This document shows positions 1 to 29,646 of a stretch of 29,646 nt of DNA, one piece after another. The stretch spans positions 1 to 29,646 of IMG/VR virus record IMGVR_UViG_2523533538_000001. One strand, written 5' to 3'. Source of the DNA: a virus. Under the pieces are notes generated by a model. The model was given only the letters and a program-made list of their open reading frames with translations. It did no database searches and was not told the DNA's origin. Each line of letters opens with the position of its first letter. The first letter of the stretch is position 1. Both the position numbers and the translations under genes were made by a program.

Positions 1-46
1 CTTAAAAAAGTGCCAGAGGTCAAAAGTTCTGATGTGAAACTTGTGT
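1..46. repeat. Left copy of 46-nt direct repeat, putative att core (attL; alternatively the overlap of a circular assembly)
   Basis: cttaaaaaagtgccagaggtcaaaagttctgatgtgaaacttgtgt is identical to 29601-29646. The repeat may extend beyond the window edges. Confidence 0.75.
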
Positions 47-117
47 GGTATCCGGCTTGGTCGCCAGATCGTATGAGTCGTTATGCCAGAATGACACTTG
101 GCATCTCAAACAGTTGA
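1..117 (+). CDS. 3' end (38 codons + TGA) of a DUF59/SufT-like Fe-S cluster assembly protein gene, partial: LKKVPEVKSSDVKLVWYPAWSPDRMSRYARMTLGISNS*
   Basis: Frame 1 is open from the window edge to TGA 115-117. The C-terminal VW.P.W..D.MSRYA...LGI signature is recalled from DUF59/SufT proteins of Firmicutes. Confidence 0.65.
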   Translation, partial: LKKVPEVKSSDVKLVWYPAWSPDRMSRYARMTLGISNS

Positions 118-265: not shown

Positions 266-1225
266 TTGAATGAGCTAAGATTGCTAGAAAAAGAATTTTA
301 TTTTAACTGTGAAGCAACGGGATTACAAAACAAAACAATAGTAAGATATAGAAAGTGTTTTAATATCTTTCTAAAGTATTTAGAAGAGAAGTCAGACTAT
401 ATAGAATTAGAGAGCATTACAGCAAATCAGATTAAAGCATTTTTGCTTAGCTTGAAGCACAAAGGCAGAGCAGAGAGTTATTTAAATACACACATCAAAA
501 CAATTAGAGCATTTTATAGATTTTGTGTAGACGAAGAGTACTTAGAACAATCTCAAAATGTTGCGCTGAAAGTTAAATTCTTTAGACAAAAGAAAACGAT
601 TATTAGAACATTCAACGATGATGAAGTATTGCAAATGATTAACGCTTGTGACAGAAGCAAATTTGGTAAGAAAGATTCACTGTTTAGCAAGTATTTATCA
701 CAACGCAACAAATTTATTATTATGCTATTAGCTGACACTGGTCTAAGATGTGATGAGATGTGTCACTTGCGAAATGATGACTTTTCTGAAAACTCAATAT
801 TCGTTGAAAGAGGCAAGAACAACAAAGAAAGACAAGTTTATACATCCTTGCCAGTTATAAATCAGTATTTTAAATATATGCGAATTAAACAGCTTTATTT
901 TAAAGATAAGCTACATGCAGATTATTTGTTGCTGGGCGCTTATGACGGTACAAGGCTATCAGTTAATGCAGTTGAAGGATTAATTAAAAAATTGGGAAAA
1001 CGGTGCAATATTAGAAAAGAAATAAGATGTGCGCCTCATGATTTTAGACACTATGCAGCGATTAAGCTATTACAGCAAACTGATGTATATCAGACTTCAA
1101 GAATCCTAGGACACTCGTCAACTAGAGTTACAGAGATATATTTGCGCAGTATGCAAACAGATCAAATCATAAAAAACACTAGAAATAAGTCACCACTTAG
1201 CCAATTAAAAAAAGGGAGATATTAA
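266..1225 (+). CDS. int: Tyrosine recombinase / phage integrase (XerC/D-like, 319 aa)
   Basis: TTG start 5 nt after AAGGGAGGTG (251-260). Catalytic signature is visible: TGLRCDE (Arg), HDFRHYAA (His-x-x-Arg), GHSSTRVTEIY (His...Tyr). N-terminal SAM-like core-binding domain. Position is adjacent to the att repeat. Confidence 0.9.
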   Translation: MNELRLLEKEFYFNCEATGLQNKTIVRYRKCFNIFLKYLEEKSDYIELESITANQIKAFLLSLKHKGRAESYLNTHIKTIRAFYRFCVDEEYLEQSQNVALKVKFFRQKKTIIRTFNDDEVLQMINACDRSKFGKKDSLFSKYLSQRNKFIIMLLADTGLRCDEMCHLRNDDFSENSIFVERGKNNKERQVYTSLPVINQYFKYMRIKQLYFKDKLHADYLLLGAYDGTRLSVNAVEGLIKKLGKRCNIRKEIRCAPHDFRHYAAIKLLQQTDVYQTSRILGHSSTRVTEIYLRSMQTDQIIKNTRNKSPLSQLKKGRY

Positions 1226-1226
1226 A

Positions 1227-1658
1227 ATGACATATACTAAAATAATCAAAGCAACTAATAACTTATCAATCGACAACGCAATTTTTGGACAAGAACTATT
1301 TTTAATCTCTAACAATGAAAAAGATGAAGTAGCTTTACTAGATGCGTTAAAGAAGTATCTAAACACAAACGCAAATACGACAGGAGACATTAAAGAAGAC
1401 TTGATCAGCATTTTGATTAACAGTGAAGAAGATCATGATAAACTTGCACAAGTATTAAAAGTAGACGACATATCACTAACGCTAGATCAAACGGTAACAG
1501 CATCTGATTTAAATTTTGAAGATAGTTTTGTTTATATAATAGAAGACAATAAAATAAAACAACTAACGCTTGCAGATGCAGAAGAAGAAGTTGAGATTGA
1601 TAAAGATGAATTTGATGCGATTTTAGCAGAGAATGGTATCGACAGCAACAACTATTGA
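1227..1658 (+). CDS. Hypothetical highly acidic protein (143 aa), co-transcribed with int
   Basis: ATG lies 1 nt after the int stop. By my count there are 32 D/E versus 11 K and no R. No family recognised. Confidence 0.7.
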   Translation: MTYTKIIKATNNLSIDNAIFGQELFLISNNEKDEVALLDALKKYLNTNANTTGDIKEDLISILINSEEDHDKLAQVLKVDDISLTLDQTVTASDLNFEDSFVYIIEDNKIKQLTLADAEEEVEIDKDEFDAILAENGIDSNNY

Positions 1659-1718
1659 CACAACAACAAACATATGATATAATGGATACATACAAAGAAG
1701 GAACCCCTGTTTTTTTAA

Positions 1719-1751
1719 GGCTTTTAGCAGAAATGCTAGAGGTCTTTTTTT
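1719..1751 (+). terminator. Rho-independent terminator ending the int-acidic ORF unit
   Basis: Stem cttttagca / tgctagagg (with G-U pairs), loop gaaa, followed by a run of 7 T (1745-1751). Confidence 0.6.
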
Positions 1752-1790
1752 ATGTGTTAATATATATAGTCAAGCGATATACATCATAGA

Positions 1791-2013
1791 AATATTGTAA
1801 TTTTATCTATATAGCTATTTTTTTAATTAGATTGATGCGGTATATCGCAGAGAACTTAAATCCATTTTGAGTAAATATTACTCAAATAGGTCACAAGCGT
1901 CAGTTTATTAAATAGAATATTGTAATTTTATCTGTATAGCTATTTTTATTAATATATAATTATGTAATTTTATCTGTATAGCTATTTATTTATTTCAAAA
2001 ATATGTAATTTTA
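1791..2013 (+). repeat. Iteron-like direct repeats, core TGTAATTTTATCTGTATAGCTATTT, 3 full copies + 1 partial
   Basis: Copies at 1796-1820 (one mismatch), 1921-1945 and 1963-1987 (identical 25-mers), with a partial copy at 2004-2013. The last three are spaced 41-42 bp apart. Copies 1 and 2 extend to 31/32 identity (1791-1822 vs 1916-1947). ATCTGTA half-motifs recur at 2163-2169 and 2174-2180. Confidence 0.8.
1866..1886. repeat. Palindrome TTTGAGTAA-ata-TTACTCAAA between iteron copies 1 and 2 (possible protein-binding site)
   Basis: 9-bp perfect inverted arms separated by 3 nt, lying in ORF-free DNA. Confidence 0.5.
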
Positions 2014-2321
2014 CAGAAATAAGCCCGTTTTTGTGCACTAAGAAACAAAGACATATAAGAAACAAACACAATATAAGAATAAAGAAGAGAGTATAATACT
2101 CTAACTTCACTGCTGACGCAGTTCGTTTACGAGCATCTTAAATTGTCATTAAATAATAATTTATCTGTAACACATCTGTAACCAAAATCATTTCCACCCT
2201 GGCATACTTTTTGGCAATAATAGTGAAGGGGTAAATAATTTATTAAATAGTATGTCAATTGCTTTTTTGAATTATTTAATAAAAATTGAAAAACACAGTG
2301 TTATCAAGGGTTTATTAACTA

Positions 2322-2350
2322 TTGACAAATTTTTAGATATATGTTATAAT
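2322..2350 (+). promoter_or_regulatory. Consensus sigma-A type early promoter
   Basis: TTGACA (2322-2327), 17-nt spacer, TATAAT (2345-2350), with an extended -10 TG at 2342-2343. It lies ~70 nt upstream of the first early ORF. Confidence 0.8.
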
Positions 2351-2418
2351 GAATGTATAATAATGAGAGACCAAAAACTTCACACAAAAGTTTGAAAAAT
2401 ATGCAGGGAGTTTTATAA

Positions 2419-2610
2419 ATGAGACCAATTCAATATACAGCTTTTTATTGCTATGACAAAAAACTATCACTAATGCTAAAAGACAAAGGCTATACACGCT
2501 TAGCAGTTGCAACAAATCAAAGCTCTAATAATCAATTTGCTATTTATGTTAGAGACGAACAATTAGACAAAGAAATAAAACAATACTACAAAACAAATAA
2601 AATTAAATAG
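2419..2610 (+). CDS. Small early protein (63 aa), possibly DUF5659-like
   Basis: AGGGAG (2405-2410) lies 8 nt before the ATG. The pattern F..yd..La..L...Gy.......F.F....L...I..YY resembles small phage DUF5659 proteins as I recall them. Confidence 0.6.
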   Translation: MRPIQYTAFYCYDKKLSLMLKDKGYTRLAVATNQSSNNQFAIYVRDEQLDKEIKQYYKTNKIK

Positions 2611-2623
2611 GAGATTAACAAGC

Positions 2624-3838
2624 ATGAAGTCATTTTACTCGATTACAAATAAGATTTACGATTTACAAGATGCAACAGAATTTGATTATGCGGTAGCAGC
2701 AATGATAGCTACTTACAATTTACCTTTTTCAACAGATGAAGTTGTTGATGAAATAGAAACATTTACATTTACAGTAAATGAAATCTTCACAAGATTAAGA
2801 CTTGACTATGATAACAAAACTTACTACACAAAAAAGATCAGAACATCAATTAAAAAATTACATGATGCAAATGTAATTAATATTTCAAACTATGATCAAA
2901 TTGACTTTAACGATAATAGTAACGAAAACAACAACAATGAAATATTCTATCTTTCACAAGTTGTTGATGAAGCTGGCGAGTATGCAGGCTTTGCTTCATT
3001 GGTCTGTAAAGAGTTGATGAACGCTCTAGAGATACCTAAAATTTCTGATCGCATACAAGCAATTGCATTTTATGTATCTGTCAATCAACGCATCTTCCGT
3101 GCTAAAGCAGAAGACACAAAAGCAGATATTAGCAGATTTATTAACTGGGAATGCATTGCAACAATTGCTAACAAATACGGACGCAGTCGCACAATTGGTT
3201 TGAAGTCATTGCAACAGTTGCAAAAAGTAAAAGCTTTATCATTTGCTATTGTTAAGTTGAACGGTGCTTTAAAAGATGCAGAAAAAAGCAGTACAAAATA
3301 TGTAATTAGCAGATACGAATACAACAACAGTTTAAACGCATATGTAAACGAAAAGCTAAAAGAAGGCTTGTACAAATCAATTGTTGCAAATGCTGAATAT
3401 TTACAAAATGATGAATTAAAAGACGACAGATACTATTACAACGAAGAAGATAAAGAGGCGTTTAATAGTATGAAGCGTGTTAAAAAGGTCGCTACAACGC
3501 AATCTGATGAAGATGAGACGATTGTAGAAAGTACTAAAGAAGATACTAAAGAAGAAGTTAATAATATAGAAGAAACAGAACAAAAAATAGAAAAGGAAGA
3601 TGAAGAATTGGTAGACAAAGAAATAGAGCAAAAACAAAACTTTGATGATTTCGGCGACTTTTTTGCTAGTGAATATGACGATGTGATTAACAAACAAGAA
3701 CAAAAAGTTGAGTTAGTTGATAGCGCAAAAGTTGTACAGTTTAAAAAAGTTGCAAATGAAGAAATTAAAGTTGAAAAAAATAAAGAAGATTTAGAAGCGA
3801 GAATGAAAGCAACGCTTGCAAAAATGGAAGGAAGATAA
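2624..3838 (+). CDS. Early protein (404 aa) with acidic/lysine-rich low-complexity C-terminal third; candidate DNA-binding / replication initiator by position only
   Basis: AGGAG 9 nt upstream of the ATG. The central segment YGRSRTIGLKSLQQLQKVKAL looks helix-turn-helix like. It lies downstream of the iterons. No family recognised. Confidence 0.6.
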   Translation: MKSFYSITNKIYDLQDATEFDYAVAAMIATYNLPFSTDEVVDEIETFTFTVNEIFTRLRLDYDNKTYYTKKIRTSIKKLHDANVINISNYDQIDFNDNSNENNNNEIFYLSQVVDEAGEYAGFASLVCKELMNALEIPKISDRIQAIAFYVSVNQRIFRAKAEDTKADISRFINWECIATIANKYGRSRTIGLKSLQQLQKVKALSFAIVKLNGALKDAEKSSTKYVISRYEYNNSLNAYVNEKLKEGLYKSIVANAEYLQNDELKDDRYYYNEEDKEAFNSMKRVKKVATTQSDEDETIVESTKEDTKEEVNNIEETEQKIEKEDEELVDKEIEQKQNFDDFGDFFASEYDDVINKQEQKVELVDSAKVVQFKKVANEEIKVEKNKEDLEARMKATLAKMEGR

Positions 3839-3842
3839 AAAA

Positions 3843-4028
3843 ATGACTAGAGAAGAATTACTTAAATATGTTAAAACAGAACAAGCTAAGTTAGATGCAG
3901 ACATCAAAAAACGAAAAGAGGCAGACGAACAACAAGACAAACAATTAGATGAACAATTTAAAAATATGCAAAAGCAAATAAATGAGTTAAAAGTCGAAAT
4001 GGACGAACTTAAAAATAGAATGAAGTAA
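3843..4028 (+). CDS. Small coiled-coil protein (61 aa from ATG 3843)
   Basis: GGAAGGAAG ends 8 nt before ATG 3843. The TTG at 3816 given in the ORF track lies inside the previous gene and has no RBS. Confidence 0.6.
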   Translation: MTREELLKYVKTEQAKLDADIKKRKEADEQQDKQLDEQFKNMQKQINELKVEMDELKNRMK

Positions 4029-4040
4029 AAAAAATAAGGG

Positions 4041-4072
4041 GCATCTTCTGTTTAAAAAAATAGCAGAGGTGC
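4041..4072 (+). promoter_or_regulatory. Hairpin that pairs with the Shine-Dalgarno of the next gene
   Basis: gcatcttctg (4041-4050) pairs with cagaggtgc (4064-4072), giving 9 bp with one bulge. The 3' arm contains the SD AGAGGTG, 5 nt before ATG 4077. Confidence 0.4.
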
Positions 4073-4076
4073 AAAA

Positions 4077-4862
4077 ATGCAAGAGTATCAAAAACAAGCA
4101 ATAGAACTAGTAAAAAACGAAAAAATTAAAGAGCGAGTATTTAAAAATGATGGAAGTTGGTCAGTTAATAAAACATGTGCAAAAGCTAATATTGAAAATA
4201 TGTATAAATGTTTTGAAGCAATGTATTTGTTCGATAATTTACTAGAAAAATATAACGAAGTGCCAAATCAAGATTTTTATGTTGAAGAATATATTAAGTT
4301 GTATAGACAAAAAATAAAAACTAATGATCCTTTTATGTTTGAAGTTGGCGATGACTTTATAAATAGTTGCATTAAGTGGCGAGCGGATAGAGCTTATAAA
4401 GCAGCGATAATTGAATTAGTAACACAGGCACAATTAGAAAAAATGGGATATGAAGTAATCGCAGACAAATATTTGGACTGGGTCATGGGCGTTGATATAG
4501 TAGCTTTTAAAGCAAGTAAAATGTGGTTAATACATATCACAAAAGACACAGATTTTAGCAGAGAAAAAATGACTAAAAAGGGAAGTTATAGCGGTTTTAA
4601 AATTAACAAACAATCAGTAAAATTTAGACGAGATTTTACTGAACATGTTGCGCTGTATTATCAAAATGAAGAGTGTAAAGCAAACACAATTGAAAATGGA
4701 CTACCATTTTTTAGATGCAGATACATCAGACAACAGTTAAATGATGATAAAGCGATAGATGTTAATGACGAAGACAACGAGCTTAATCGTTTTGTAAAAC
4801 GAATAAATGAAATTGAAGAATATAGTTTGATGTCAAACAAATTTACATATGTTTTTATGTAA
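4077..4862 (+). CDS. Hypothetical early protein (261 aa)
   Basis: Long ORF with an SD. The segment GVDIVAFK...IHITKD is faintly nuclease-like, but I cannot assign a family. Confidence 0.7.
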   Translation: MQEYQKQAIELVKNEKIKERVFKNDGSWSVNKTCAKANIENMYKCFEAMYLFDNLLEKYNEVPNQDFYVEEYIKLYRQKIKTNDPFMFEVGDDFINSCIKWRADRAYKAAIIELVTQAQLEKMGYEVIADKYLDWVMGVDIVAFKASKMWLIHITKDTDFSREKMTKKGSYSGFKINKQSVKFRRDFTEHVALYYQNEECKANTIENGLPFFRCRYIRQQLNDDKAIDVNDEDNELNRFVKRINEIEEYSLMSNKFTYVFM

Positions 4863-4884
4863 CATATAACAATAAAAATAAGGG

Positions 4885-4914
4885 GCATTCTTTTAATAAA
4901 TCAGAAAAGAGTGC
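4885..4914 (+). promoter_or_regulatory. Second SD-sequestering hairpin, paralogous to 4041-4072
   Basis: gcattctttt (4885-4894) pairs with aaaagagtgc (4905-4914), giving 10 bp including one G-U. It has the same left flank AAAATAAGGGGCAT and the same right flank GTGCAAAAA-ATG as the first copy. Confidence 0.4.
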
Positions 4915-4919
4915 AAAAA

Positions 4920-5822
4920 ATGAAAAAAGAAACAGAATTAAAAAATGAAATAATTGAAAAGTTGCTAAAGTCAAGATGGTTAAATGTTTATACTAAAAAG
5001 TTAAATAAAAAATTTGGTAAGTATGCGACAAAAACAAATGGAATTGAAAGTAATCCTTCAAAAGATTCGCTAATCTCGAATTTATGGGAAAGTTTAGAAA
5101 TATACAATCGCAATCACAGTTTAACTGATGACTATGACAAAATTGAAAAGTATTGTTATCAAAAAGCTTATACAATGACAAGTGATGAATTTGTGAGTGA
5201 AACTGGCAAATTTCGATATGGCAAAAAGAAAGAGTGGGTACAAAGACAAGTTGAGTTTGATGATGTCAAAGCGAATCAAATAGAATGCTGGGACGAGTAT
5301 CCAGTTGAAAATGGGTATGTGTATACAGATAACGAGACTGTTAATAAAGCATATGCGATTGATATATTAGAAAAGCATTTTACTAAGTCGCAAGCAGTGT
5401 TTTGCAAGTCAGTTTTAACTTTGGGGACTAAAGCAACGAGAAAGAATTTTGAACTGACAAAACAGACTTTTAACAATCGTTTTAATCGGACAATTAGAGC
5501 GATTGAGAAGAAGAGACATTTGTATATTGATGAAGTCGTAACTGAAGCAGAAAAAGAGATCAATGACAAATTAGAATTGATTGACAGAGTTATTAAGTAT
5601 GTTGAACAAGAAAATAGTAATGAAGTGCAGTTGTTTAAGTTGCTGTTGAATTTATGGGATAATGAATTGAGATATTTATACTTTGAAACTTTTGGGGATT
5701 ATGAAAAAGAATTAGCATTGATGAATTTTAGAAATAATGACGGACGAAAGCAAGCATATAAATTAATAAACGCAGTTTATGCAGAAAGAGATCAATTGAA
5801 TGATTTGCTGAGGTGTGCGTAA
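4920..5822 (+). CDS. Candidate late-gene transcription regulator with sigma-70 region-4-like HTH (300 aa from ATG 4920)
   Basis: ATG 4920 was chosen by analogy with ...AGAGGTGCAAAAATG at 4077. FTKSQAVFCKSVLTLGTKATRKNFELTKQTFNNRFNRTIRAIEKK resembles sigma region 4, and DSLISNLWESLEIY resembles region 2. It is the next-to-last gene before the late operon. Confidence 0.35.
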   Translation: MKKETELKNEIIEKLLKSRWLNVYTKKLNKKFGKYATKTNGIESNPSKDSLISNLWESLEIYNRNHSLTDDYDKIEKYCYQKAYTMTSDEFVSETGKFRYGKKKEWVQRQVEFDDVKANQIECWDEYPVENGYVYTDNETVNKAYAIDILEKHFTKSQAVFCKSVLTLGTKATRKNFELTKQTFNNRFNRTIRAIEKKRHLYIDEVVTEAEKEINDKLELIDRVIKYVEQENSNEVQLFKLLLNLWDNELRYLYFETFGDYEKELALMNFRNNDGRKQAYKLINAVYAERDQLNDLLRCA

Positions 5823-6037
5823 TGCGTGAAGCTTTAAAGTATATAGACGAACAAATAAAAGAGACTAATACAGCAATAGCAGCAGTGTATCTAGCTAATA
5901 AGTTTTTTGATATTAAGAAAGATGATGAAGCAATTAAAAAGGCTAGTTTAAAAGTTGAAGCGTTAAAAGAAGTGAGATTGAAAATATTAGAAGATATTGC
6001 TTATAATAGCGAATATGAAGAAGTTACAATGTTATGA
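5822..6037 (+). CDS. Small hypothetical protein (71 aa)
   Basis: ATG 5822 overlaps the TAA of the upstream gene (TAATG). GAGGTG ends 6 nt upstream. Confidence 0.6.
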   Translation: MREALKYIDEQIKETNTAIAAVYLANKFFDIKKDDEAIKKASLKVEALKEVRLKILEDIAYNSEYEEVTML

Positions 6038-6079
6038 ATAAAATGATTGTGTTTGTAGTTAAGATGTTGTTAAAGTATG

Positions 6080-6109
6080 TAGACTATTTAAACAAACACA
6101 TGATATAAT
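6080..6109 (+). promoter_or_regulatory. Extended -10 promoter in front of the late region
   Basis: TAGACT (6080-6085), 18-nt spacer, TG-a-TATAAT (6101-6109). Confidence 0.5.
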
Positions 6110-6130
6110 AGTTGTGCGATATTAATAGTG

Positions 6131-6164
6131 AGAGTGTGCAGAAGCATGCTCTTATTTTAATTTT
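6131..6164 (+). terminator. Rho-independent terminator, unit A
   Basis: agagtgtgc / gcatgctct stem with loop agaa, followed by tattttaatttt. It starts ~20 nt downstream of the 6104-6109 -10 box. Confidence 0.6.
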
Positions 6165-6216
6165 AATGATAAGCGTAGTATATAATATAGATGATAACTT
6201 TGCGATGTGTTGTTAG

Positions 6217-6247
6217 AGAGTGTGCGATTGCATACTCTTTTTATTTT
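6217..6247 (+). terminator. Rho-independent terminator, unit B (paralogue of unit A)
   Basis: agagtgtgc / gcatactct stem with loop gatt, followed by tttttatttt. Like unit A it is preceded by a TGCGAT motif, plus a TATAAT at 6181-6186. Confidence 0.6.
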
Positions 6248-6292
6248 GCGTTTAAACTGTATTAGTGTATTAATACAAAGGATAATGATTAT

Positions 6293-6685
6293 ATGAGATT
6301 AACGAATAACAGAGAGTTCTATCTATCGAACAAATGGCAGACTAAACAACGAAGAGTGTTGAGAAGAGACGGATACGAATGTCGAGAAGCGAAACGATAT
6401 GGCAAAGCTAAAACGGCAGAGATGGTACATCACATATATGAGATAGAGTATTATCCAGAATTGGCTTTTGAAGATTGGAACTTGATTAGCTTATGCAATG
6501 GTAATCATAACAAGATGCATAATAGGACTGCAGACACAGTGACGAAGCTGGGGTTATATTGGCAAGAGAAACGAGCAAGTGAGTTCGTTGATTATTACGC
6601 TGAGCATATCGAATGTGTCGATGAGATTGTAGTCGAGAAGATGAAGCAGCTGAATGTGTATCAGATGTATGTCGACAAGATATAG
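6293..6685 (+). CDS. HNH endonuclease (phage packaging-associated)
   Basis: C..C...HH....N...LC...H..H motif (YECREA...VHHIYE...NLISLCNGNHNKMHN). Typical position immediately upstream of the terminase genes. Confidence 0.85.
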   Translation: MRLTNNREFYLSNKWQTKQRRVLRRDGYECREAKRYGKAKTAEMVHHIYEIEYYPELAFEDWNLISLCNGNHNKMHNRTADTVTKLGLYWQEKRASEFVDYYAEHIECVDEIVVEKMKQLNVYQMYVDKI

Positions 6686-6869
6686 AATATACAATATAAT
6701 ATCTTGTATAACAAAAGTAATATACAATATATTTCTAAAATGAAATAATATATGATAATTGAAAAAATATAATTAATAATACAGAATAGCCGAAAAGGTT
6801 GATATGACAACAATATCCCCGCCACTAGAAAATAATATATTGTATATTAAGGGAGACCGAGCAAGGGGA
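6686..6869. other. Candidate cos / terminase-recognition region
   Basis: The 13-mer AATATACAATATA occurs at 6686-6698 and 6719-6731, with an inverted copy at 6836-6848. Two G+C-rich islands lie in very AT-rich DNA: CCCCGCC (6817-6823) and gggagaccgagcaagggga (6851-6869). The region sits between the HNH and TerS genes. Confidence 0.3.
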
Positions 6870-6917
6870 TCATTTCCAAGTGTACAGGCTATGAGAATAA
6901 ATTTTTGAAGAAAGCAG

Positions 6918-7289
6918 GTGAAAATTGACTTGAAAAACATACCAACTGTCGAAACTATTAAGCGCAGAACTGTTAAGAACATGAAAGAGTTGGGTACTTA
7001 CAAAGTTCAGTTTTCACCTATAATTTCACGCTATGCTGAAACGGTGTGGCAATACAATTTATTGTATAGACGATTCGAACAATCTGATTTTGTCGTAGAA
7101 GTTGCGACAGGAGCAAGTGGTGTAAAAAAAAGTCCGATTGTAGCAACGCTGGAAAACTTACGGAAAGACTTAACGACATACGAAGATCGTTTGTTACTTA
7201 ATCCTAAATCGCTTAAAGATAGCGATAATAAAACTGATAATGAACCTTCAGCATTTGCAAAATTTCTAAATAGTTCTGGAGTTGATTGA
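6918..7289 (+). CDS. terS: Terminase small subunit (P27-family-like)
   Basis: GTG start. 123 aa with G.Y...D...I..Y......Y......I...G.........KK.P....LE........L.L.P.S pattern. Directly precedes and overlaps TerL. Confidence 0.7.
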
Positions 7290-26799: not shown

Positions 26800-26877
26800 G
26801 CACAATTAAATATTACTGATAAGAACACATGACTGTAAAAGTTGTGTGTTTTTTGTTTTAAAGAGGGAGAGAATGAA

Positions 26878-27762
26878 ATGGGAATAAATATGGAAACGGC
26901 TATTAATTACATGTACTCTTTAAAAAACAGAGGTATTAGATACTCTATGACTGGTTCAAGGACTGGCTCAGATGGTACTGGAGATTGTTCTGGAACTATC
27001 TATCAAGGTTTAAGAAACGGTGGAGCAAGCAATGCAGGTTGGGTGTTAAACACTGATAGTATGCACTCATGGTTGGAAAAGAATGGTTTTCAAAACATTG
27101 CCACAAACAAATCATGGACTGCTAAAAGAGGAGATATAGTTATTTTTGGTAAAAAAGGTGCTAGTGGTGGAGCAGCTGGGCATATTGTAATCTTTATAAG
27201 CAATACACAGATTATACATTGTACTTGGAAAAGCAGCACTAGAAACGGTGTGTATGTAGACAATGAAGCAAGTACATGTCCTTATAGCATGGGTTGGTAT
27301 GTTTATAGATTAAAAAATCAAAGCAAGCCTAAACCACAACCATCTAAAAAGTCTAATAACACAATTGTTAATGAAGTAATCGCAGGTAAATGGGGTAGTG
27401 GAACAGACAGAACAGCTAAACTAAAAAAGGCTGGGTATGATGCTAGTGCTATTCAAAAACTTGTTAATCAAAAGTTGAATGTTAAGACACCTAAGCCAGC
27501 ACCTGCTAAATCTACTAATTGGATTAAAGAGAAAGCAAGTTTCACACCTAATACTACTATTAATGTCAGAGACAAAGCATCTACAAGCGGTAAAGTAGTT
27601 GCTACATATCATAAAGGCGAAAAAGTCTATTATGACATGTTCAAACATGATGGTGGCTATGTGTGGATTAGTTATGTAAGTTCAAGCGGTAAACGCAGAT
27701 ACATGGCAACAGGAAACTCTAAAAATGGTAAGCGCACTAGCTCATGGGGAACATTCAAATAG
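26878..27762 (+). CDS. Endolysin: Amidase_5 (Pal-like) + one CW_7 (Cpl-7) repeat + SH3_5 cell-wall-binding domain
   Basis: GAGGGAGAG upstream of ATG 26878. YSMTGSRTGSDGTGDCSGTIYQGLRNGGAS...GHIVIF resembles the Dp-1 Pal amidase. VIAGKWGSGTDRTAKLKKAGYDASAIQKLVN is a CW_7 motif. The C-terminal YVWISYVSSSGKRRYMATG...WGTFK is SH3_5-like. Confidence 0.9.
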   Translation: MGINMETAINYMYSLKNRGIRYSMTGSRTGSDGTGDCSGTIYQGLRNGGASNAGWVLNTDSMHSWLEKNGFQNIATNKSWTAKRGDIVIFGKKGASGGAAGHIVIFISNTQIIHCTWKSSTRNGVYVDNEASTCPYSMGWYVYRLKNQSKPKPQPSKKSNNTIVNEVIAGKWGSGTDRTAKLKKAGYDASAIQKLVNQKLNVKTPKPAPAKSTNWIKEKASFTPNTTINVRDKASTSGKVVATYHKGEKVYYDMFKHDGGYVWISYVSSSGKRRYMATGNSKNGKRTSSWGTFK

Positions 27763-27783: not shown

Positions 27784-27924
27784 TTGAGCCAAATCGAGGA
27801 ATATATCAAACAACGATCTGAAGAATCAGAAGAGTTTAAAATAGCTTATGAAGAAGAGTGTAGAAGATTAGACGCTGAAGATGCAGAATGGGAAATCAGA
27901 TCAAAAGCGGATCAAAACTATTGA
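27784..27924 (+). CDS. Doubtful small ORF (46 aa, TTG start), possibly a remnant of an HTH/antitoxin-type gene N-terminus
   Basis: AAGGAAG (27770-27776) upstream. Sequence SQIEEYIKQRSEESEEFKIAYEEECRRLDAEDAEW... Its stop TGA 27922-27924 overlaps the -35 box of the toxI-like promoter. Confidence 0.25.
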   Translation: MSQIEEYIKQRSEESEEFKIAYEEECRRLDAEDAEWEIRSKADQNY

Positions 27925-27949
27925 CTGGATTTTAAGCTTATAGTATACT
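27921..27949 (+). promoter_or_regulatory. Promoter of the type III TA cassette
   Basis: TTGACT (27921-27926), 17-nt spacer, TATACT (27944-27949). Confidence 0.7.
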
Positions 27950-27960
27950 ATGAGTATAGA

Positions 27961-28064
27961 TGGAGTAGCCAAGCCACAGTTGGTAATTGATAAAAATGGA
28001 GTAGCTGAGCCATAGTCAGCAGTTGATAAAATTGGAGTATCCAAGCCATAGTTGGAATTGATAG
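27961..28064 (+). ncRNA. toxI: Type III antitoxin-like RNA: 2.9 tandem repeats of 36 nt (ToxI/antiQ-like)
   Basis: Units at 27961-27996, 27997-28032 and 28033-28064. They are head-to-tail with no spacers. R1 and R2 are identical at 28/36 positions, and the stem differences are compensatory. The array lies between a promoter and a terminator, directly upstream of a ToxN-like ORF. Confidence 0.8.
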
Positions 28065-28096
28065 GGGCTGCTCTTAATGAGCAGTCCTTTTTATTT
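28065..28096 (+). terminator. Terminator/attenuator between the repeat RNA and the toxin gene
   Basis: gggctgctc / gagcagtcc stem (9 bp, one G-U) with loop ttaat, then tttttattt. The toxin SD AAGGAG follows immediately. Confidence 0.75.
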
Positions 28097-28107
28097 AAGG
28101 AGATTAT

Positions 28108-28638
28108 ATGGACAGTTCTTTTCACTTTTATACTATTAAGGATGAGTATGTACAATATTTGCGTAAATTTGATAGTAAAGTTCATTATCAATACAAAGAT
28201 AATGCTAGTACATATGTTGGGATTGTTTTAGTAAAAAACAATTTTAATTATTTTGTTCCTTTATCAAGTTATTCAAAAAAGAATCCTACTAAAGATAAAA
28301 GAATGAAAGAAAGAGACAGGATTGTCATTAGATTATTTGAATTAGGAAACTTAAATAATCCTTTAGGTTATCTTTTGTTTAATAATATGATACCTGTACC
28401 AAACAGCGAATTGCTACCTATAGTATTGGATTTAAGTATATCTAAGCATAAGATGATGAGTAAACAAATAATTTTTATGAAAGCTATAAACGATAAAATT
28501 CACAATAAAGCTGAAACTGTTTATCGTAAGTCTGTATTTGATAAGGATAAATATTATGTAAATTTTTGTTGTGACTTTAAAATTTTAGAAGCGAAGGCTA
28601 TATTATATACAAAAGGTTTAGATGAAAAACAACAATAA
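28108..28638 (+). CDS. toxN: ToxN/AbiQ-family type III toxin (endoribonuclease), 176 aa
   Basis: AAGGAG lies 5 nt before the ATG. N-terminus FHFYTIKDEYVQYLRKFDSKV...STYVGIVL...NYFVPLSS closely resembles FYTIS.KYIEYLKEFDDKV...IGIVL...YLAPLTS of ToxN, and AbiQ. Size is typical (~170 aa). Confidence 0.85.
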   Translation: MDSSFHFYTIKDEYVQYLRKFDSKVHYQYKDNASTYVGIVLVKNNFNYFVPLSSYSKKNPTKDKRMKERDRIVIRLFELGNLNNPLGYLLFNNMIPVPNSELLPIVLDLSISKHKMMSKQIIFMKAINDKIHNKAETVYRKSVFDKDKYYVNFCCDFKILEAKAILYTKGLDEKQQ

Positions 28639-28655
28639 TCTAGTAAAGTTATAAG

Positions 28656-28687
28656 ACTCAACTGAAAAGTTGGGTATTCTTGATTTT
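28656..28687 (+). terminator. Terminator after the toxin gene
   Basis: actcaact / agttgggt stem (8 bp, one G-U) with GAAA loop, followed by a T-rich tail attcttgatttt. Confidence 0.55.
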
Positions 28688-28746
28688 CACTAGAAAATTG
28701 TTTTTTAGTCAACTAAGTAGCGAAGATATATTACTTGTAAGAATAA

Positions 28747-28780
28747 GACTAGAGATAAATTTATCTCTGGTCTTTTTTTT
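28747..28780 (+). terminator. Strong second terminator (insulator between the TA cassette and the next moron)
   Basis: gactagagat / atctctggtc stem (10 bp, one G-U) followed by a run of 8 T. Confidence 0.7.
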
Positions 28781-28868
28781 GTGCAGTTTTCATTGTGAAT
28801 ACTTTTGCTTTTCACTCTATTAACAGATAGAATATAATTGAAATAAAAAATAAGGAGTGGATAAGCAA

Positions 28869-29285
28869 ATGACAAGCAGTATATCAAGTGAAAAACTAGA
28901 GAATATCAATAGGTATAGAAAAAAGTTTGATGAGTTATTTATTAAACAAGGTGAAGAGTTAGAACAAATAATAAACGAGACTTCTGACGACTACAAAATA
29001 TTAATTGAAAACGATATACCGTTTCATTTATTAATACAAGAATCTGTTAGAAACTACATTTTTATAGGTGATATTTCTTTTAATGGGAATAAGGAATCAC
29101 TTTTCTTTGATGCAGGAGATGGGAGATTTCGCATAATTGATTCAAAAACTGTAATATCAATTAGAAAGGTTATTGAATGTAATTTATTCTCAGAGGCTAA
29201 GTTAGCAATCTCAAACCCAGAAAAATTTGTAGATGAATACGAAGAGTTCATAACTAAAAAATATGCAGTTGATAGCAGAGCTTAG
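28869..29285 (+). CDS. Hypothetical cytoplasmic protein (138 aa from ATG 28869), orphan accessory gene
   Basis: AAGGAG (28852-28857) lies 11 nt before ATG 28869, whereas the GTG 28857 of the track overlaps the SD itself. It has its own TATAAT (28833-28838) and its own terminator. No family recognised. Confidence 0.65.
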   Translation: MTSSISSEKLENINRYRKKFDELFIKQGEELEQIINETSDDYKILIENDIPFHLLIQESVRNYIFIGDISFNGNKESLFFDAGDGRFRIIDSKTVISIRKVIECNLFSEAKLAISNPEKFVDEYEEFITKKYAVDSRA

Positions 29286-29309: not shown

Positions 29310-29336
29310 AGAACTACTGAAAAGTAGTTCTTTTTT
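29310..29336 (+). terminator. Terminator after the orphan gene
   Basis: agaactact / agtagttct stem (9 bp perfect) with GAAA loop, then ttttt. Confidence 0.75.
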
Positions 29337-29467: not shown

Positions 29468-29552
29468 AGACACAAGGTATGAAAAGTGAAATATTTATTT
29501 ATTTTATTGTAACTTGCCAAACCTCAAAAAACATTGCTATATCAACATTTAA

Positions 29553-29646
29553 ATGGGTTGTCCTCTCGCAGATATTATTACAGATGAAATCCATCGGGCG
29601 CTTAAAAAAGTGCCAGAGGTCAAAAGTTCTGATGTGAAACTTGTGT
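29553..29646 (+). pseudogene. Phage-borne internal fragment of the DUF59/SufT-like frame (MGCPLADIITDEIHRA + core), runs off the right edge
   Basis: The frame starts right after an in-frame TAA (29550-29552). MGCPLA is the conserved DUF59 motif. Joined through the 46-nt repeat to 47-117 it forms one continuous 54-codon frame. Confidence 0.6.
29601..29646. repeat. Right copy of the 46-nt direct repeat (attR core or circular overlap)
   Basis: Identical to 1-46. Confidence 0.75.

Follow-up and report, generated by a model that had tools for sequence, protein, structure and literature searches.

A predicted AbiQ/antiQ type III toxin-antitoxin cassette near the right end of a Bavariicoccus seileri prophage

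Background

The locus described here raises the question of whether a phage-borne cassette of a promoter, three tandem repeats, a terminator and a toxin-like gene represents a new branch of the type III toxin-antitoxin systems or a known system in a new place. AbiQ/antiQ is the experimentally best-known Gram-positive type III system. A sequence-only reading of the window, that is, of the whole stretch of 29,646 nucleotides analysed here, had raised the possibility of an undescribed subfamily, since the repeats combine a 36-nt unit, like that of ToxI, with a copy number of about 2.9, like that of antiQ. We find instead a cassette that is very probably a functional AbiQ/antiQ type III orthologue and that belongs to the cargo of a B. 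seileri prophage, at its right end. The locus is a clear but ordinary addition to the known AbiQ/antiQ family and not a new subfamily.

Prophage context

The 29.6-kb window is an integrated prophage of Bavariicoccus seileri, a cheese-surface bacterium, and originates from a metagenome-assembled genome (MAG) of a dairy sequencing project. It contains genes for an integrase, terminase, portal, protease, capsid, tape measure, tail, holin and endolysin; an integrase, a full virion and lysis module, att direct repeats and bacterial host flanks are thus all present. A search that included the MAG flanks identified the att duplication as an exact 144-bp direct repeat, the copies of which lie 29,600 bp apart, with attL reaching over the 3' end of FeS_assembly_P, a host gene. 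The ENA contig terminates at -31 and 29678 in window coordinates, exactly where a k=127 assembly graph would be expected to branch because of the att repeat. The features that frame the cassette are as follows.

1..95, no strand: attL, in-window part (full 144-bp repeat at window -48..95, an exact match to 29552..29695)
266..1225, plus strand: tyrosine integrase (Pfam Phage_integrase and Phage_int_SAM_1; NCBIfam Xer-like recombinase matches all below cut-off)
26842..27762, plus strand: endolysin, last gene of the lysis module (Amidase_5, CW_7 and SH3_5; start at 26878 according to the gene callers)
28869..29285, plus strand: 138-aa ORFan, second cargo gene before attR (own promoter at 28811-28838, own terminator at 29310-29331)
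29552..29646, no strand: attR, in-window part (full repeat at 29552..29695)

The abiQ cassette lies between the endolysin, which ends at 27762, and attR, which begins at 29552, as the sequence-only reading had placed it; the ORFan occupies the same interval. Two exhaustive searches yielded zero homologues of the 138-aa ORFan. We considered it as a conserved partner or third component of abiQ and rejected this because it is an ORFan and is missing from the other AbiQ-clade loci; its PADLOC match to AbiTi (E 0.011) was judged to be noise.

Elements of the cassette

The elements of the cassette, all of them on the same strand, are listed below in order.

27921..27949, plus strand: sigma-A-type promoter, TTGACT (27921-27926), 17 nt, TATACT (27944-27949); 10/12 consensus matches
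27957..27992, plus strand: antiQ-like unit 1, leader-proximal; 31/37 alignment columns identical to the pSRQ900 unit
27993..28028, plus strand: antiQ-like unit 2; 28/36 identical to the pSRQ900 antiQ unit
28029..28063, plus strand: antiQ-like unit 3; 35/35 identical to the pSRQ900 antiQ unit
28063..28096, plus strand: intrinsic terminator between array and toxin; 11-bp stem and 5-nt loop (28063-28089), T-run to 28096
28097..28102, plus strand: ribosome-binding site AAGGAG, 5 nt ahead of the ATG at 28108; read from the sequence
28108..28638, plus strand: abiQ orthologue, predicted 176-aa ToxN/AbiQ-family endoribonuclease toxin; Pfam, PADLOC, PDB and pSRQ900 comparison
28745..28782, plus strand: terminator-like hairpin and T-run downstream of abiQ; terminator scan (a weaker one lies at 28656-28675)

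This is the canonical type III layout, common to the AbiQ/antiQ locus of plasmid pSRQ900. The promoter, the three 36-nt copies with a truncated third copy lacking one internal nucleotide, the terminator, the AAGGAG and the 176-aa ORF had all been described in the sequence-only reading, and each is borne out here, on the repeats by both Tandem Repeats Finder (TRF) and the alignment; the terminator stem is computed as 11 bp where 9 bp had been given.

Transcription would start at about 27956, as predicted from the promoter position. Promoter-like sites are frequent in the region (25 found versus 11 +/- 3.6 expected), and the promoter alone is weak evidence; a -10-like box, nevertheless, lies a few nucleotides upstream of the first repeat in 7/7 AbiQ-clade loci. 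Terminator-like sites number 4 in the region versus 0.4 expected. The one between array and toxin folds at -18.5 kcal/mol (z = -5.4, with 0/200 shuffles as stable), and an equivalent terminator separates repeats and toxin in all AbiQ-clade relatives. By analogy with ToxIN (PMC4147584), it is presumed to be leaky, and no consensus promoter was found between it and the abiQ ATG. Likewise, no terminator was found between the late lysis genes and the array.

The toxin

Searches with the 176-aa ORF place it in the ToxN/AbiQ family. It matches Pfam ToxN_toxin (PF13958) with E 5.3e-34 and 118 bits (cut-off 25) over profile positions 2-156 of 159, the PADLOC AbiQ model with E 1.4e-55 and 186 bits, the AbiQ structure PDB 4GLK with E 5.7e-76, and ToxN structures in PDB with E 1e-12 to 1e-20; all of its PDB matches are AbiQ or ToxN chains. 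The N-terminal motifs previously recognised as ToxN/AbiQ-like align with both proteins in the PDB sequences. ToxN_toxin is the sole significant Pfam family and AbiQ the sole PADLOC family, other matches having E values of at least 0.07, which assigns the ORF to ToxN/AbiQ and not to CptN/TenpN. None of the NCBIfam models matches the toxin.

The alignment with pSRQ900 AbiQ is free of gaps and shows 68% identity over 166 aa (E 1e-89). Ser53 aligns with Ser51, the catalytic residue of AbiQ (PMC5086642), and the PLSS motif is kept. Across the AbiQ clade this position is Ser or Thr, and the 47 positions that are invariant in the toxin alignment are intact in the ORF. This homology makes the 176-aa ORF a close orthologue of AbiQ from Lactococcus lactis.

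The repeat array and its fold

TRF reports the tandem array at 27960-28063, with period 36, 2.9 copies, 77% matches and a score of 134, and an independent repeat search finds three copies at 36-nt spacing. The array lies on the same strand as the toxin and ends 45 nt before its ATG. DNA identity to pSRQ900 is 74% in an alignment that spans the repeats into the ORF. The array is not a chance arrangement, because its unit aligns column by column with the arrays of six independent loci; by this alignment the repeats are homologous to antiQ. A scan of the whole window against Rfam at the gathering threshold gave zero matches, and a relaxed scan gave ToxI (RF02519) at 28029-28062 with 26.8 bits and E 0.004-0.007, below the gathering score of 50. 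Two ORFs that overlap the array (27901-28191, minus strand, 96 aa; 28052-28231, plus strand, 59 aa) were taken as AT-rich artefacts; the gene callers of two assemblies leave both uncalled.

Each unit contains a 5-bp stem, formed by GCCAA 27968-27972 and TTGGT 27980-27984 in unit 1, GCTGA 28004-28008 and TCAGC 28016-28020 in unit 2, and TCCAA 28040-28044 and TTGGA 28052-28056 in unit 3. AbiQ cleaves its antitoxin by the rule A^AAA (reviews, including PMC5086642). Unit 1 ends in an A-tract (27992-27996) that bears this motif, and unit 2, with a second A-tract at 28028-28031, is the sole unit that has cleavage motifs on both flanks. Unit 3 is one nucleotide shorter internally, lacks the 3' A-tract (GATAGGGG) and abuts the terminator directly. 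The last unit has this A-tract in 6/6 relatives, so that processing here may differ from theirs in detail.

The hairpin is kept by compensatory changes and is strongly supported by covariation. In the alignment 100% of the cells of the 5-bp helix are paired, double changes occur at 3/5 pairs, and 0/500 shuffles reach its covariation score, while slid controls are 20-59% paired. In unit 2 itself, three base pairs differ from those of antiQ by compensatory changes, a pattern that indicates selection on RNA structure. The rival helix UUGGA/UCCAA, which minimum free energy prefers, was rejected: it is 63.5% paired, no better than shuffles, and unconserved. Taken singly, the units have weak folds (z -0.2 to -1.6). 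A candidate second helix, in which GG would pair with CC of the loop to form a pseudoknot, is invariant across the alignment and thus carries no covariation signal; a published G32 pseudoknot mutant, known from a review, is consistent with it. Diverged copies with compensatory stem changes support the antiQ hairpin and indicate the positions that tolerate change.

Comparison with known systems

The closest known system is AbiQ/antiQ of the Lactococcus lactis W-37 plasmid pSRQ900 (NC_004959.1; PDB 4GLK), which has the same order of promoter, about 2.9 repeats, terminator, ribosome-binding site and toxin. The two loci also have in common the catalytic Ser, a homologous RNA unit with one identical copy, the A^AAA tracts and the same hairpin, and both come from dairy settings. 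On the other hand, the pSRQ900 locus is on a plasmid, whereas ours is on an integrated tailed prophage. The pSRQ900 units are 35 nt long, while two of the window units reach 36 nt by 1-nt insertions; the pSRQ900 copies match each other at 98% and those of the window at 77%, with the stem of copy 2 re-coded; the last window unit differs in having no 3' A-tract; and AbiQ has 172 aa against 176 aa here. The dairy project that yielded the window represents the same niche as pSRQ900.

Further loci of the AbiQ clade occur on Listeria plasmids (pLI42 and relatives), in an Enterococcus faecalis island, in Macrococcoides bohemicum, and in Solobacterium and a conjugative element. Their toxins are 44-70% identical to that of the window, each has a terminator and a ribosome-binding site, and their 35-37-nt units share the core GGAG..CC.AGCC..AGT.GG with the window units. 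They differ from the window locus in their setting, which is a plasmid or island that carries resolvase, integrase or Mob genes instead of a slot flanked by phage lysis genes and att, and in having nearly homogeneous arrays, whereas the window array is diverged. The order of elements is identical in all AbiQ-clade loci (n=7), and the relatives have units of 35, 36 and 37 nt in 1.9-3.2 copies.

These comparisons overturn the idea of an undescribed subfamily, because the toxin (68% identical to AbiQ itself), the RNA unit (copy 3 being identical to antiQ at 35/35 positions), the unit length and the copy number all fit AbiQ/antiQ relatives. Diverged copies are also common. In a set of about 100 ToxN-family loci, arrays normally have periods of 34-40 nt and roughly three copies, and a self-match of 60-90% is the commonest state, compared with 96-98% in plasmid arrays. 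Viral arrays look the less homogeneous, since those with a self-match of at least 90% make up 1/24 of the viral and 21/70 of the genome loci, but in this measure the loci are non-independent and two-copy arrays are under-scored, and we make no viral-versus-genome claim from it.

ToxIN of Pectobacterium atrosepticum and Bacillus thuringiensis (PDB 2XD0, 4ATO) is more remote. Its toxins belong to the same fold family as that of the window (E 9e-15 and 9e-21), and the systems are alike in operon logic and in that the toxin cuts its own antitoxin at an A-rich position. Window copy 3 also aligns end to end with the Rfam ToxI model, with the hairpin co-located, at the score below gathering given above. 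In sequence, however, the toxins are only distant relatives, and the P. atrosepticum ToxI (5.5 x 36 nt) is unrelated to the window unit.

With respect to phages, the cassette DNA gave zero matches in 50,697 deposited phage genomes, searched in distant mode, and the toxin protein matched only 3 deposited phages, at 27-33% identity. A scan of species-representative genomes gave no close toxin relative, the best being 47% identical, from Solobacterium. Phage genomes do carry type III toxins, for example in Clostridium phage D-1873, Fusobacterium phage phiFN37, Clostridioides phage pCD1602_4 and IMG/VR contigs such as L090 and L106, but these ToxN-family toxins are 26-40% identical to the window toxin and fall outside the AbiQ clade. 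In L090 and L106 the gene adjoins the integrase at the prophage end, after about three diverged 36-37-nt repeats, and the two loci thus occupy the same end-of-prophage slot as the window cassette.

Proposed mechanism and alternative explanations

We infer a mechanism of four steps by homology, on the basis of the toxin and RNA relationships, the architecture, the covariation and the prophage boundaries; antitoxin processing, toxin neutralisation and abortive infection are proposed by analogy with AbiQ and ToxIN. A constitutive sigma-A-type promoter would transcribe the three antiQ-like units. Most transcripts would end at the strong terminator, as about 90% do in ToxIN, so that antitoxin RNA is in excess, and a minority would read through and be translated into toxin. 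The AbiQ-like endoribonuclease, with Ser53 as its predicted nucleophile, would cut the precursor at the A^AAA tracts 27992-27996 and 28028-28031. The products would be one free 36-nt unit, the 5' unit, and the 3' unit with the terminator still attached. The folded units, with the covariation-supported hairpin probably inside a pseudoknot, would bind and inhibit the toxin, probably in a ToxIN-like 3:3 complex. Disturbance of host transcription or of the antitoxin supply by a superinfecting phage would leave free toxin to cleave A-rich RNAs and block phage development, which would protect the lysogen population and, with it, the prophage. Note that abortive infection is not universal in the ToxIN family, because ToxIN of B. 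thuringiensis does not show it in its native host (PMC5086642).

A role in defence is compatible with one in stabilising the prophage, in which loss of the element would leave no labile antitoxin and the remaining toxin would poison the cell. Type III systems do stabilise plasmids, as ToxIN of B. thuringiensis does (PMC5086642, PMC3475682), every other AbiQ-clade locus is on a plasmid or mobile island and is accompanied by integrases, resolvases or Mob genes, and the cassette of the window lies inside an att-bounded element. An integrated prophage, however, is inherited with the chromosome, so segregational loss should be rare; moreover, AbiQ was discovered and characterised through its anti-phage phenotype (PMC5086642), and the slot between lysin and att is a typical site of cargo that benefits the lysogen, where ToxN-family genes recur. 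We regard addiction as an unlikely main role, though one deserving of some weight. Decay into a non-functional remnant is a highly improbable reading of the same array: the copies, 77% alike against 96-98% in plasmid arrays, would have drifted, and the last one would have lost its AAAA cleavage tract. Against this, the ORF is intact with all 47 invariant clade positions and keeps Ser at the Ser/Thr position equivalent to Ser51, the changes in copy 2 are compensatory and thus point to a structure under selection, such self-match is the commonest in the family, and loss of antitoxin function beside an intact toxin would kill the cell.

The identity of copy 3 to the pSRQ900 antiQ unit at all 35 positions, in spite of toxins that are just 68% identical, could also be explained if the array RNA, made during infection, neutralised resident AbiQ toxins in new hosts. 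Late transcription could enter the array through the terminator-free stretch that follows the lysis genes, toxin-less orphan antiQ/ToxI-like units occur on the viral contigs L118-L120, and pseudo-ToxI of phage PhiTE (PMC3475682) offers a precedent for such a decoy. We nonetheless consider this explanation improbable, since a pure decoy would have no use for a toxin gene, and the one found here is complete and apparently functional. It is similarly doubtful that the array does double duty, restraining its own toxin while its antiQ RNA neutralises plasmid-borne AbiQ in the dairy community. If it did, one phage cassette would combine defence and counter-defence, copies 1 and 2, being diverged, would be adapted to the toxin of the phage itself, which is 68% identical to that of pSRQ900, and the orphan units of L118-L120 would be a toxin-less version of the strategy.

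A functional AbiQ/antiQ orthologue thus remains our preferred reading. It leaves the understanding of type III systems unchanged and extends the range of AbiQ/antiQ beyond plasmids, to a temperate phage whose host lives on cheese surfaces, which shows that in food-associated Firmicutes the cassette travels among plasmids, islands and prophages. The NCBI record already names the 176-aa protein a ToxN/AbiQ family toxin; this public record annotates the toxin only and not the RNA antitoxin, an example of how annotation pipelines miss half of such a system.

Elements of the cassette

The region that a sequence-only reading had interpreted as a prophage-borne type III toxin-antitoxin cassette of the ToxIN/AbiQ kind contains every element listed for it, namely promoter, repeats, terminator, ribosome-binding site (RBS) and ORF, as seen by consensus scanning, Tandem Repeats Finder and folding.

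Elements of the cassette
27921-27949, + strand: promoter, TTGACT, 17 nt, TATACT (consensus scan, 10/12 matches)
27960-28063, + strand: repeat array (Tandem Repeats Finder: period 36, 2.9 copies, 77% matches, score 134)
28063-28089, + strand: intrinsic terminator, 11-bp stem, with T-run to 28096 (terminator scan)
28097-28102, + strand: RBS AAGGAG, 5 nt 5' of the ATG (sequence)
28108-28638, + strand: toxin ORF, 176 aa (ORF call)

A separate repeat search also gives three copies at a spacing of 36 nt. Taken alone, the promoter match is weak evidence: the consensus scan of this AT-rich region finds 25 promoter-like sites where 11 are expected; a -10-like box lies directly 5' of the first unit, at the equivalent position, in all seven related loci. 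Terminator-like sites are scarce (4 found, 0.4 expected), and the fold of the terminator (-18.5 kcal/mol, z = -5.4) is as good in none of 200 shuffles. Since the terminator scan finds no terminator between the endolysin gene and the cassette promoter, late phage transcripts could enter the array. The gap from the endolysin stop to the cassette holds a small ORF (about 46 aa, 27784-27924) that is very rich in charged residues and was called by the gene caller of neither assembly; its stop codon falls within the -35 box.

Toxin and repeat units

The 176-aa ORF matches the Pfam profile ToxN_toxin (PF13958) over nearly its whole length (5.3e-34) and the PADLOC AbiQ model (1.4e-55). Its best solved structure is Lactococcus lactis AbiQ (PDB 4GLK, 5.7e-76), with the ToxN structures 4ATO, 2XD0 and 7D8O behind it (9e-21 to 1e-12). 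The family search proposed for this ORF thus yields ToxN/AbiQ, and no match to CptN or TenpN in the Pfam, PADLOC and PDB searches. Aligned by BLASTP with AbiQ of the L. lactis plasmid pSRQ900, the ORF product is 68% identical (85% positives) across 166 residues, ungapped. Ser51, the one AbiQ position at which mutation eliminated RNase activity (PMC5086642), corresponds to Ser53 of the window toxin, within the conserved PLSS motif; a Solobacterium relative has Thr at this position, as does ToxN. These matches and the conserved Ser show that the N-terminal ToxN/AbiQ signature first noted for this ORF is real.

At the DNA level, identity to pSRQ900 (74%) starts at the first repeat and extends into the ORF, and in a three-way alignment the window units match the pSRQ900 and Listeria pLI42 arrays column by column. 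The pSRQ900 array (35 nt x 2.9, 98% self-match) is antiQ itself, for which the literature gives 35 nt x 2.8, and the Listeria array has 2.9 copies of 36 nt. Window copy 3 is identical to the pSRQ900 unit at 35/35 positions. The period of 36 nt comes from 1-nt insertions, one each in copies 1 and 2, which also differ from that unit by 5 and 7 substitutions, respectively. Four further loci of the AbiQ clade, with toxin identities of 70% (Enterococcus faecalis), 61% (Macrococcoides bohemicum), 47% (Solobacterium) and 46% (a conjugative element), share the order -10 box, 35-37-nt units x 1.9-3.2, terminator, RBS and toxin.

Structure and predicted processing of the repeat RNA

For the covariation analysis, 18 units from the seven loci were aligned. 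In a 5-bp helix around the loop GCCRYAG, 100% of cells are standard pairs; when its 3' partner is slid by 1-3 columns, pairing falls to 20-59%. Compensatory double changes occur in three of the five pairs, and the covariation score was not equalled in any of 500 column shuffles. Window copy 2 by itself contributes three compensated pairs, with GCTGA/TCAGC replacing TCCAA/TTGGA. The thermodynamically preferred helix of the canonical unit, UUGGA/UCCAA, is not conserved: with 63.5% of cells paired, it does no better than shuffles. A candidate second helix between the 5' GG and the loop CC is compatible with all sequences, its invariance placing it beyond the reach of covariation. Such a helix would give an H-type pseudoknot and fits the G32A pseudoknot mutant in the literature. 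The Rfam ToxI model aligns with copy 3 end to end with the hairpin in register, at a sub-threshold score (26.8 bits, E 0.004-0.007; gathering score 50).

AbiQ is known to cleave antiQ at A^AAA. AAAA tracts are present 3' of window copies 1 and 2, and follow every copy in all six relatives, whereas copy 3 of the window reads GATAGGGG and continues into the terminator. On this basis, processing is predicted to cut out one 36-nt unit completely (27993-28028), leaving the leader-proximal unit on one side and, on the other, a third unit that stays attached to the terminator hairpin.

The prophage and its boundaries

The exact toxin protein is encoded on the 136-kb contig DQHO01000003.1 of a Bavariicoccus seileri MAG (GCA_003524445.1), which is 100% identical to the window, and on a 29,710-bp ENA metagenome contig (run ERR699787) of PRJEB6314, a dairy and cheese genome and metagenome catalogue.

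Prophage features
-48..95 and 29552..29695, no strand: attL and attR, exact 144-bp direct repeat (MAG flanks)
266-1225, + strand: tyrosine integrase (gene annotation)
ending at 27762, + strand: endolysin, Amidase_5/CW_7/SH3_5 (gene annotation)
28869-29285, + strand: 138-aa ORFan between abiQ and attR, its own transcription unit (promoter 28811-28838, terminator 29310-29331)

Further + strand genes encode small and large terminase, portal, protease, major capsid, tape measure, tail proteins and holin. The attL copy overlaps the 3' end of the host FeS_assembly_P gene, and chromosomal genes for a Y-family polymerase, CutC and Cys/Met metabolism enzymes lie 3' of attR. From the endolysin end and the repeat positions, the cassette sits between endolysin and attR, as had been proposed. 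The ends of the ENA contig (-31 and 29678) fall exactly where a k=127 assembly graph would branch at a repeat of this kind, and therefore confirm the boundaries independently. Ending within the att repeat on both sides, this contig has a 110-nt terminal direct repeat, which virus-calling tools could misread as that of a circular complete genome (DTR).

The 138-aa ORFan may be a second cargo gene, for lysogenic conversion or for defence. Searches of 5.8 billion proteins and, exhaustively with HMMER, of 1.84 billion representatives matched it to itself alone. In the early region (1227-7000), Pfam, PHROGs and NCBIfam give no recognisable repressor or replication genes. Beyond the integrase and a 143-aa ORF, a long intergenic stretch holds tandem repeats of 42 nt x 2.7 and 17 nt x 2.3 (1904-2013 and 2039-2079) that could be origin iterons or operator sites.

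Proposed function and alternatives

The homology, architecture, covariation and location of the cassette are direct observations. The mechanism is inferred from homology with AbiQ/antiQ and ToxIN. Constitutive transcription would supply a surplus of repeat RNA, most transcripts ending at the terminator and a minority reading through into the toxin gene. The toxin would cut the precursor at A-tracts and be sequestered by the folded units. Infection by another phage would upset this balance, and the released RNase would cut A-rich transcripts, halting phage development.

It is plausible, and compatible with this defence role, that the cassette stabilises the prophage as an addiction module: type III systems are known to stabilise plasmids, and the other AbiQ-clade loci are all carried by mobile elements. 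A role of the array as an anti-defence decoy is suggested by copy 3, a perfect match to plasmid antiQ, and by orphan antiQ/ToxI-like units on three IMG/VR viral contigs with no toxin ORF seen nearby. The intact toxin gene counts against a pure decoy.

Orphan antiQ/ToxI-like units
L118 (48.8-kb contig), 6000-6164, minus strand
L119 (20.0-kb contig), 2381-2404, + strand
L120 (111.8-kb contig), 5816-5839, minus strand

These units are single or non-tandem (sequence TTGGAGAATCCTAGCCATAGTAGGGAATGATAAAC), with no ToxN-like ORF seen within about 700 nt 3', and could be phage antitoxin mimics like PhiTE pseudo-ToxI. In L119 and L120, the unit is in a noncoding stretch adjoining tRNA-like sequence. Decay of the cassette is unlikely: it retains an intact, conserved ORF, and copy 2 has changed in a compensatory way. 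Divergence among copies is what the family shows most often, with self-match of 60-90% at 47% of the genome loci and 79% of the viral ones.

Place in the family

In its toxin, repeat array, terminator and promoter, the window locus has the sequence-level features of the ToxIN family, and in toxin and antitoxin-unit homology those of the AbiQ subgroup. Toxin homology, RNA homology and architecture support the type III interpretation, except for the suggestion of an undescribed subfamily, which is not upheld: unit length ranges over 35-37 nt in the clade and 34-40 nt in the family as a whole, and arrays typically have about three copies. Public annotation names the protein a ToxN/AbiQ family toxin and lacks the RNA array.

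Phage-borne type III loci are already documented, as in Clostridium phage D-1873 (Blower et al. 2012); others are on phiFN37, pCD1602_4 and 28 IMG/VR contigs. In two surveyed loci, about three diverged 36-37-nt repeats precede a toxin gene placed between endolysin and integrase (L090) or between a repressor-like gene and a serine integrase (L106). The novelty of the window locus is modest: within the data searched, it is the sole AbiQ-clade locus (at least 44% identity to the window toxin) in a tailed prophage. Copy-to-copy identity of at least 90% is found in 1 of 24 viral-contig arrays against 21 of 70 genome loci (L003-L117). ToxN-family arrays on viral contigs look less homogeneous by this measure, which is crude; since the loci are also not independent, this is a lead only. 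The window array itself is a natural set of diverged antitoxin copies.
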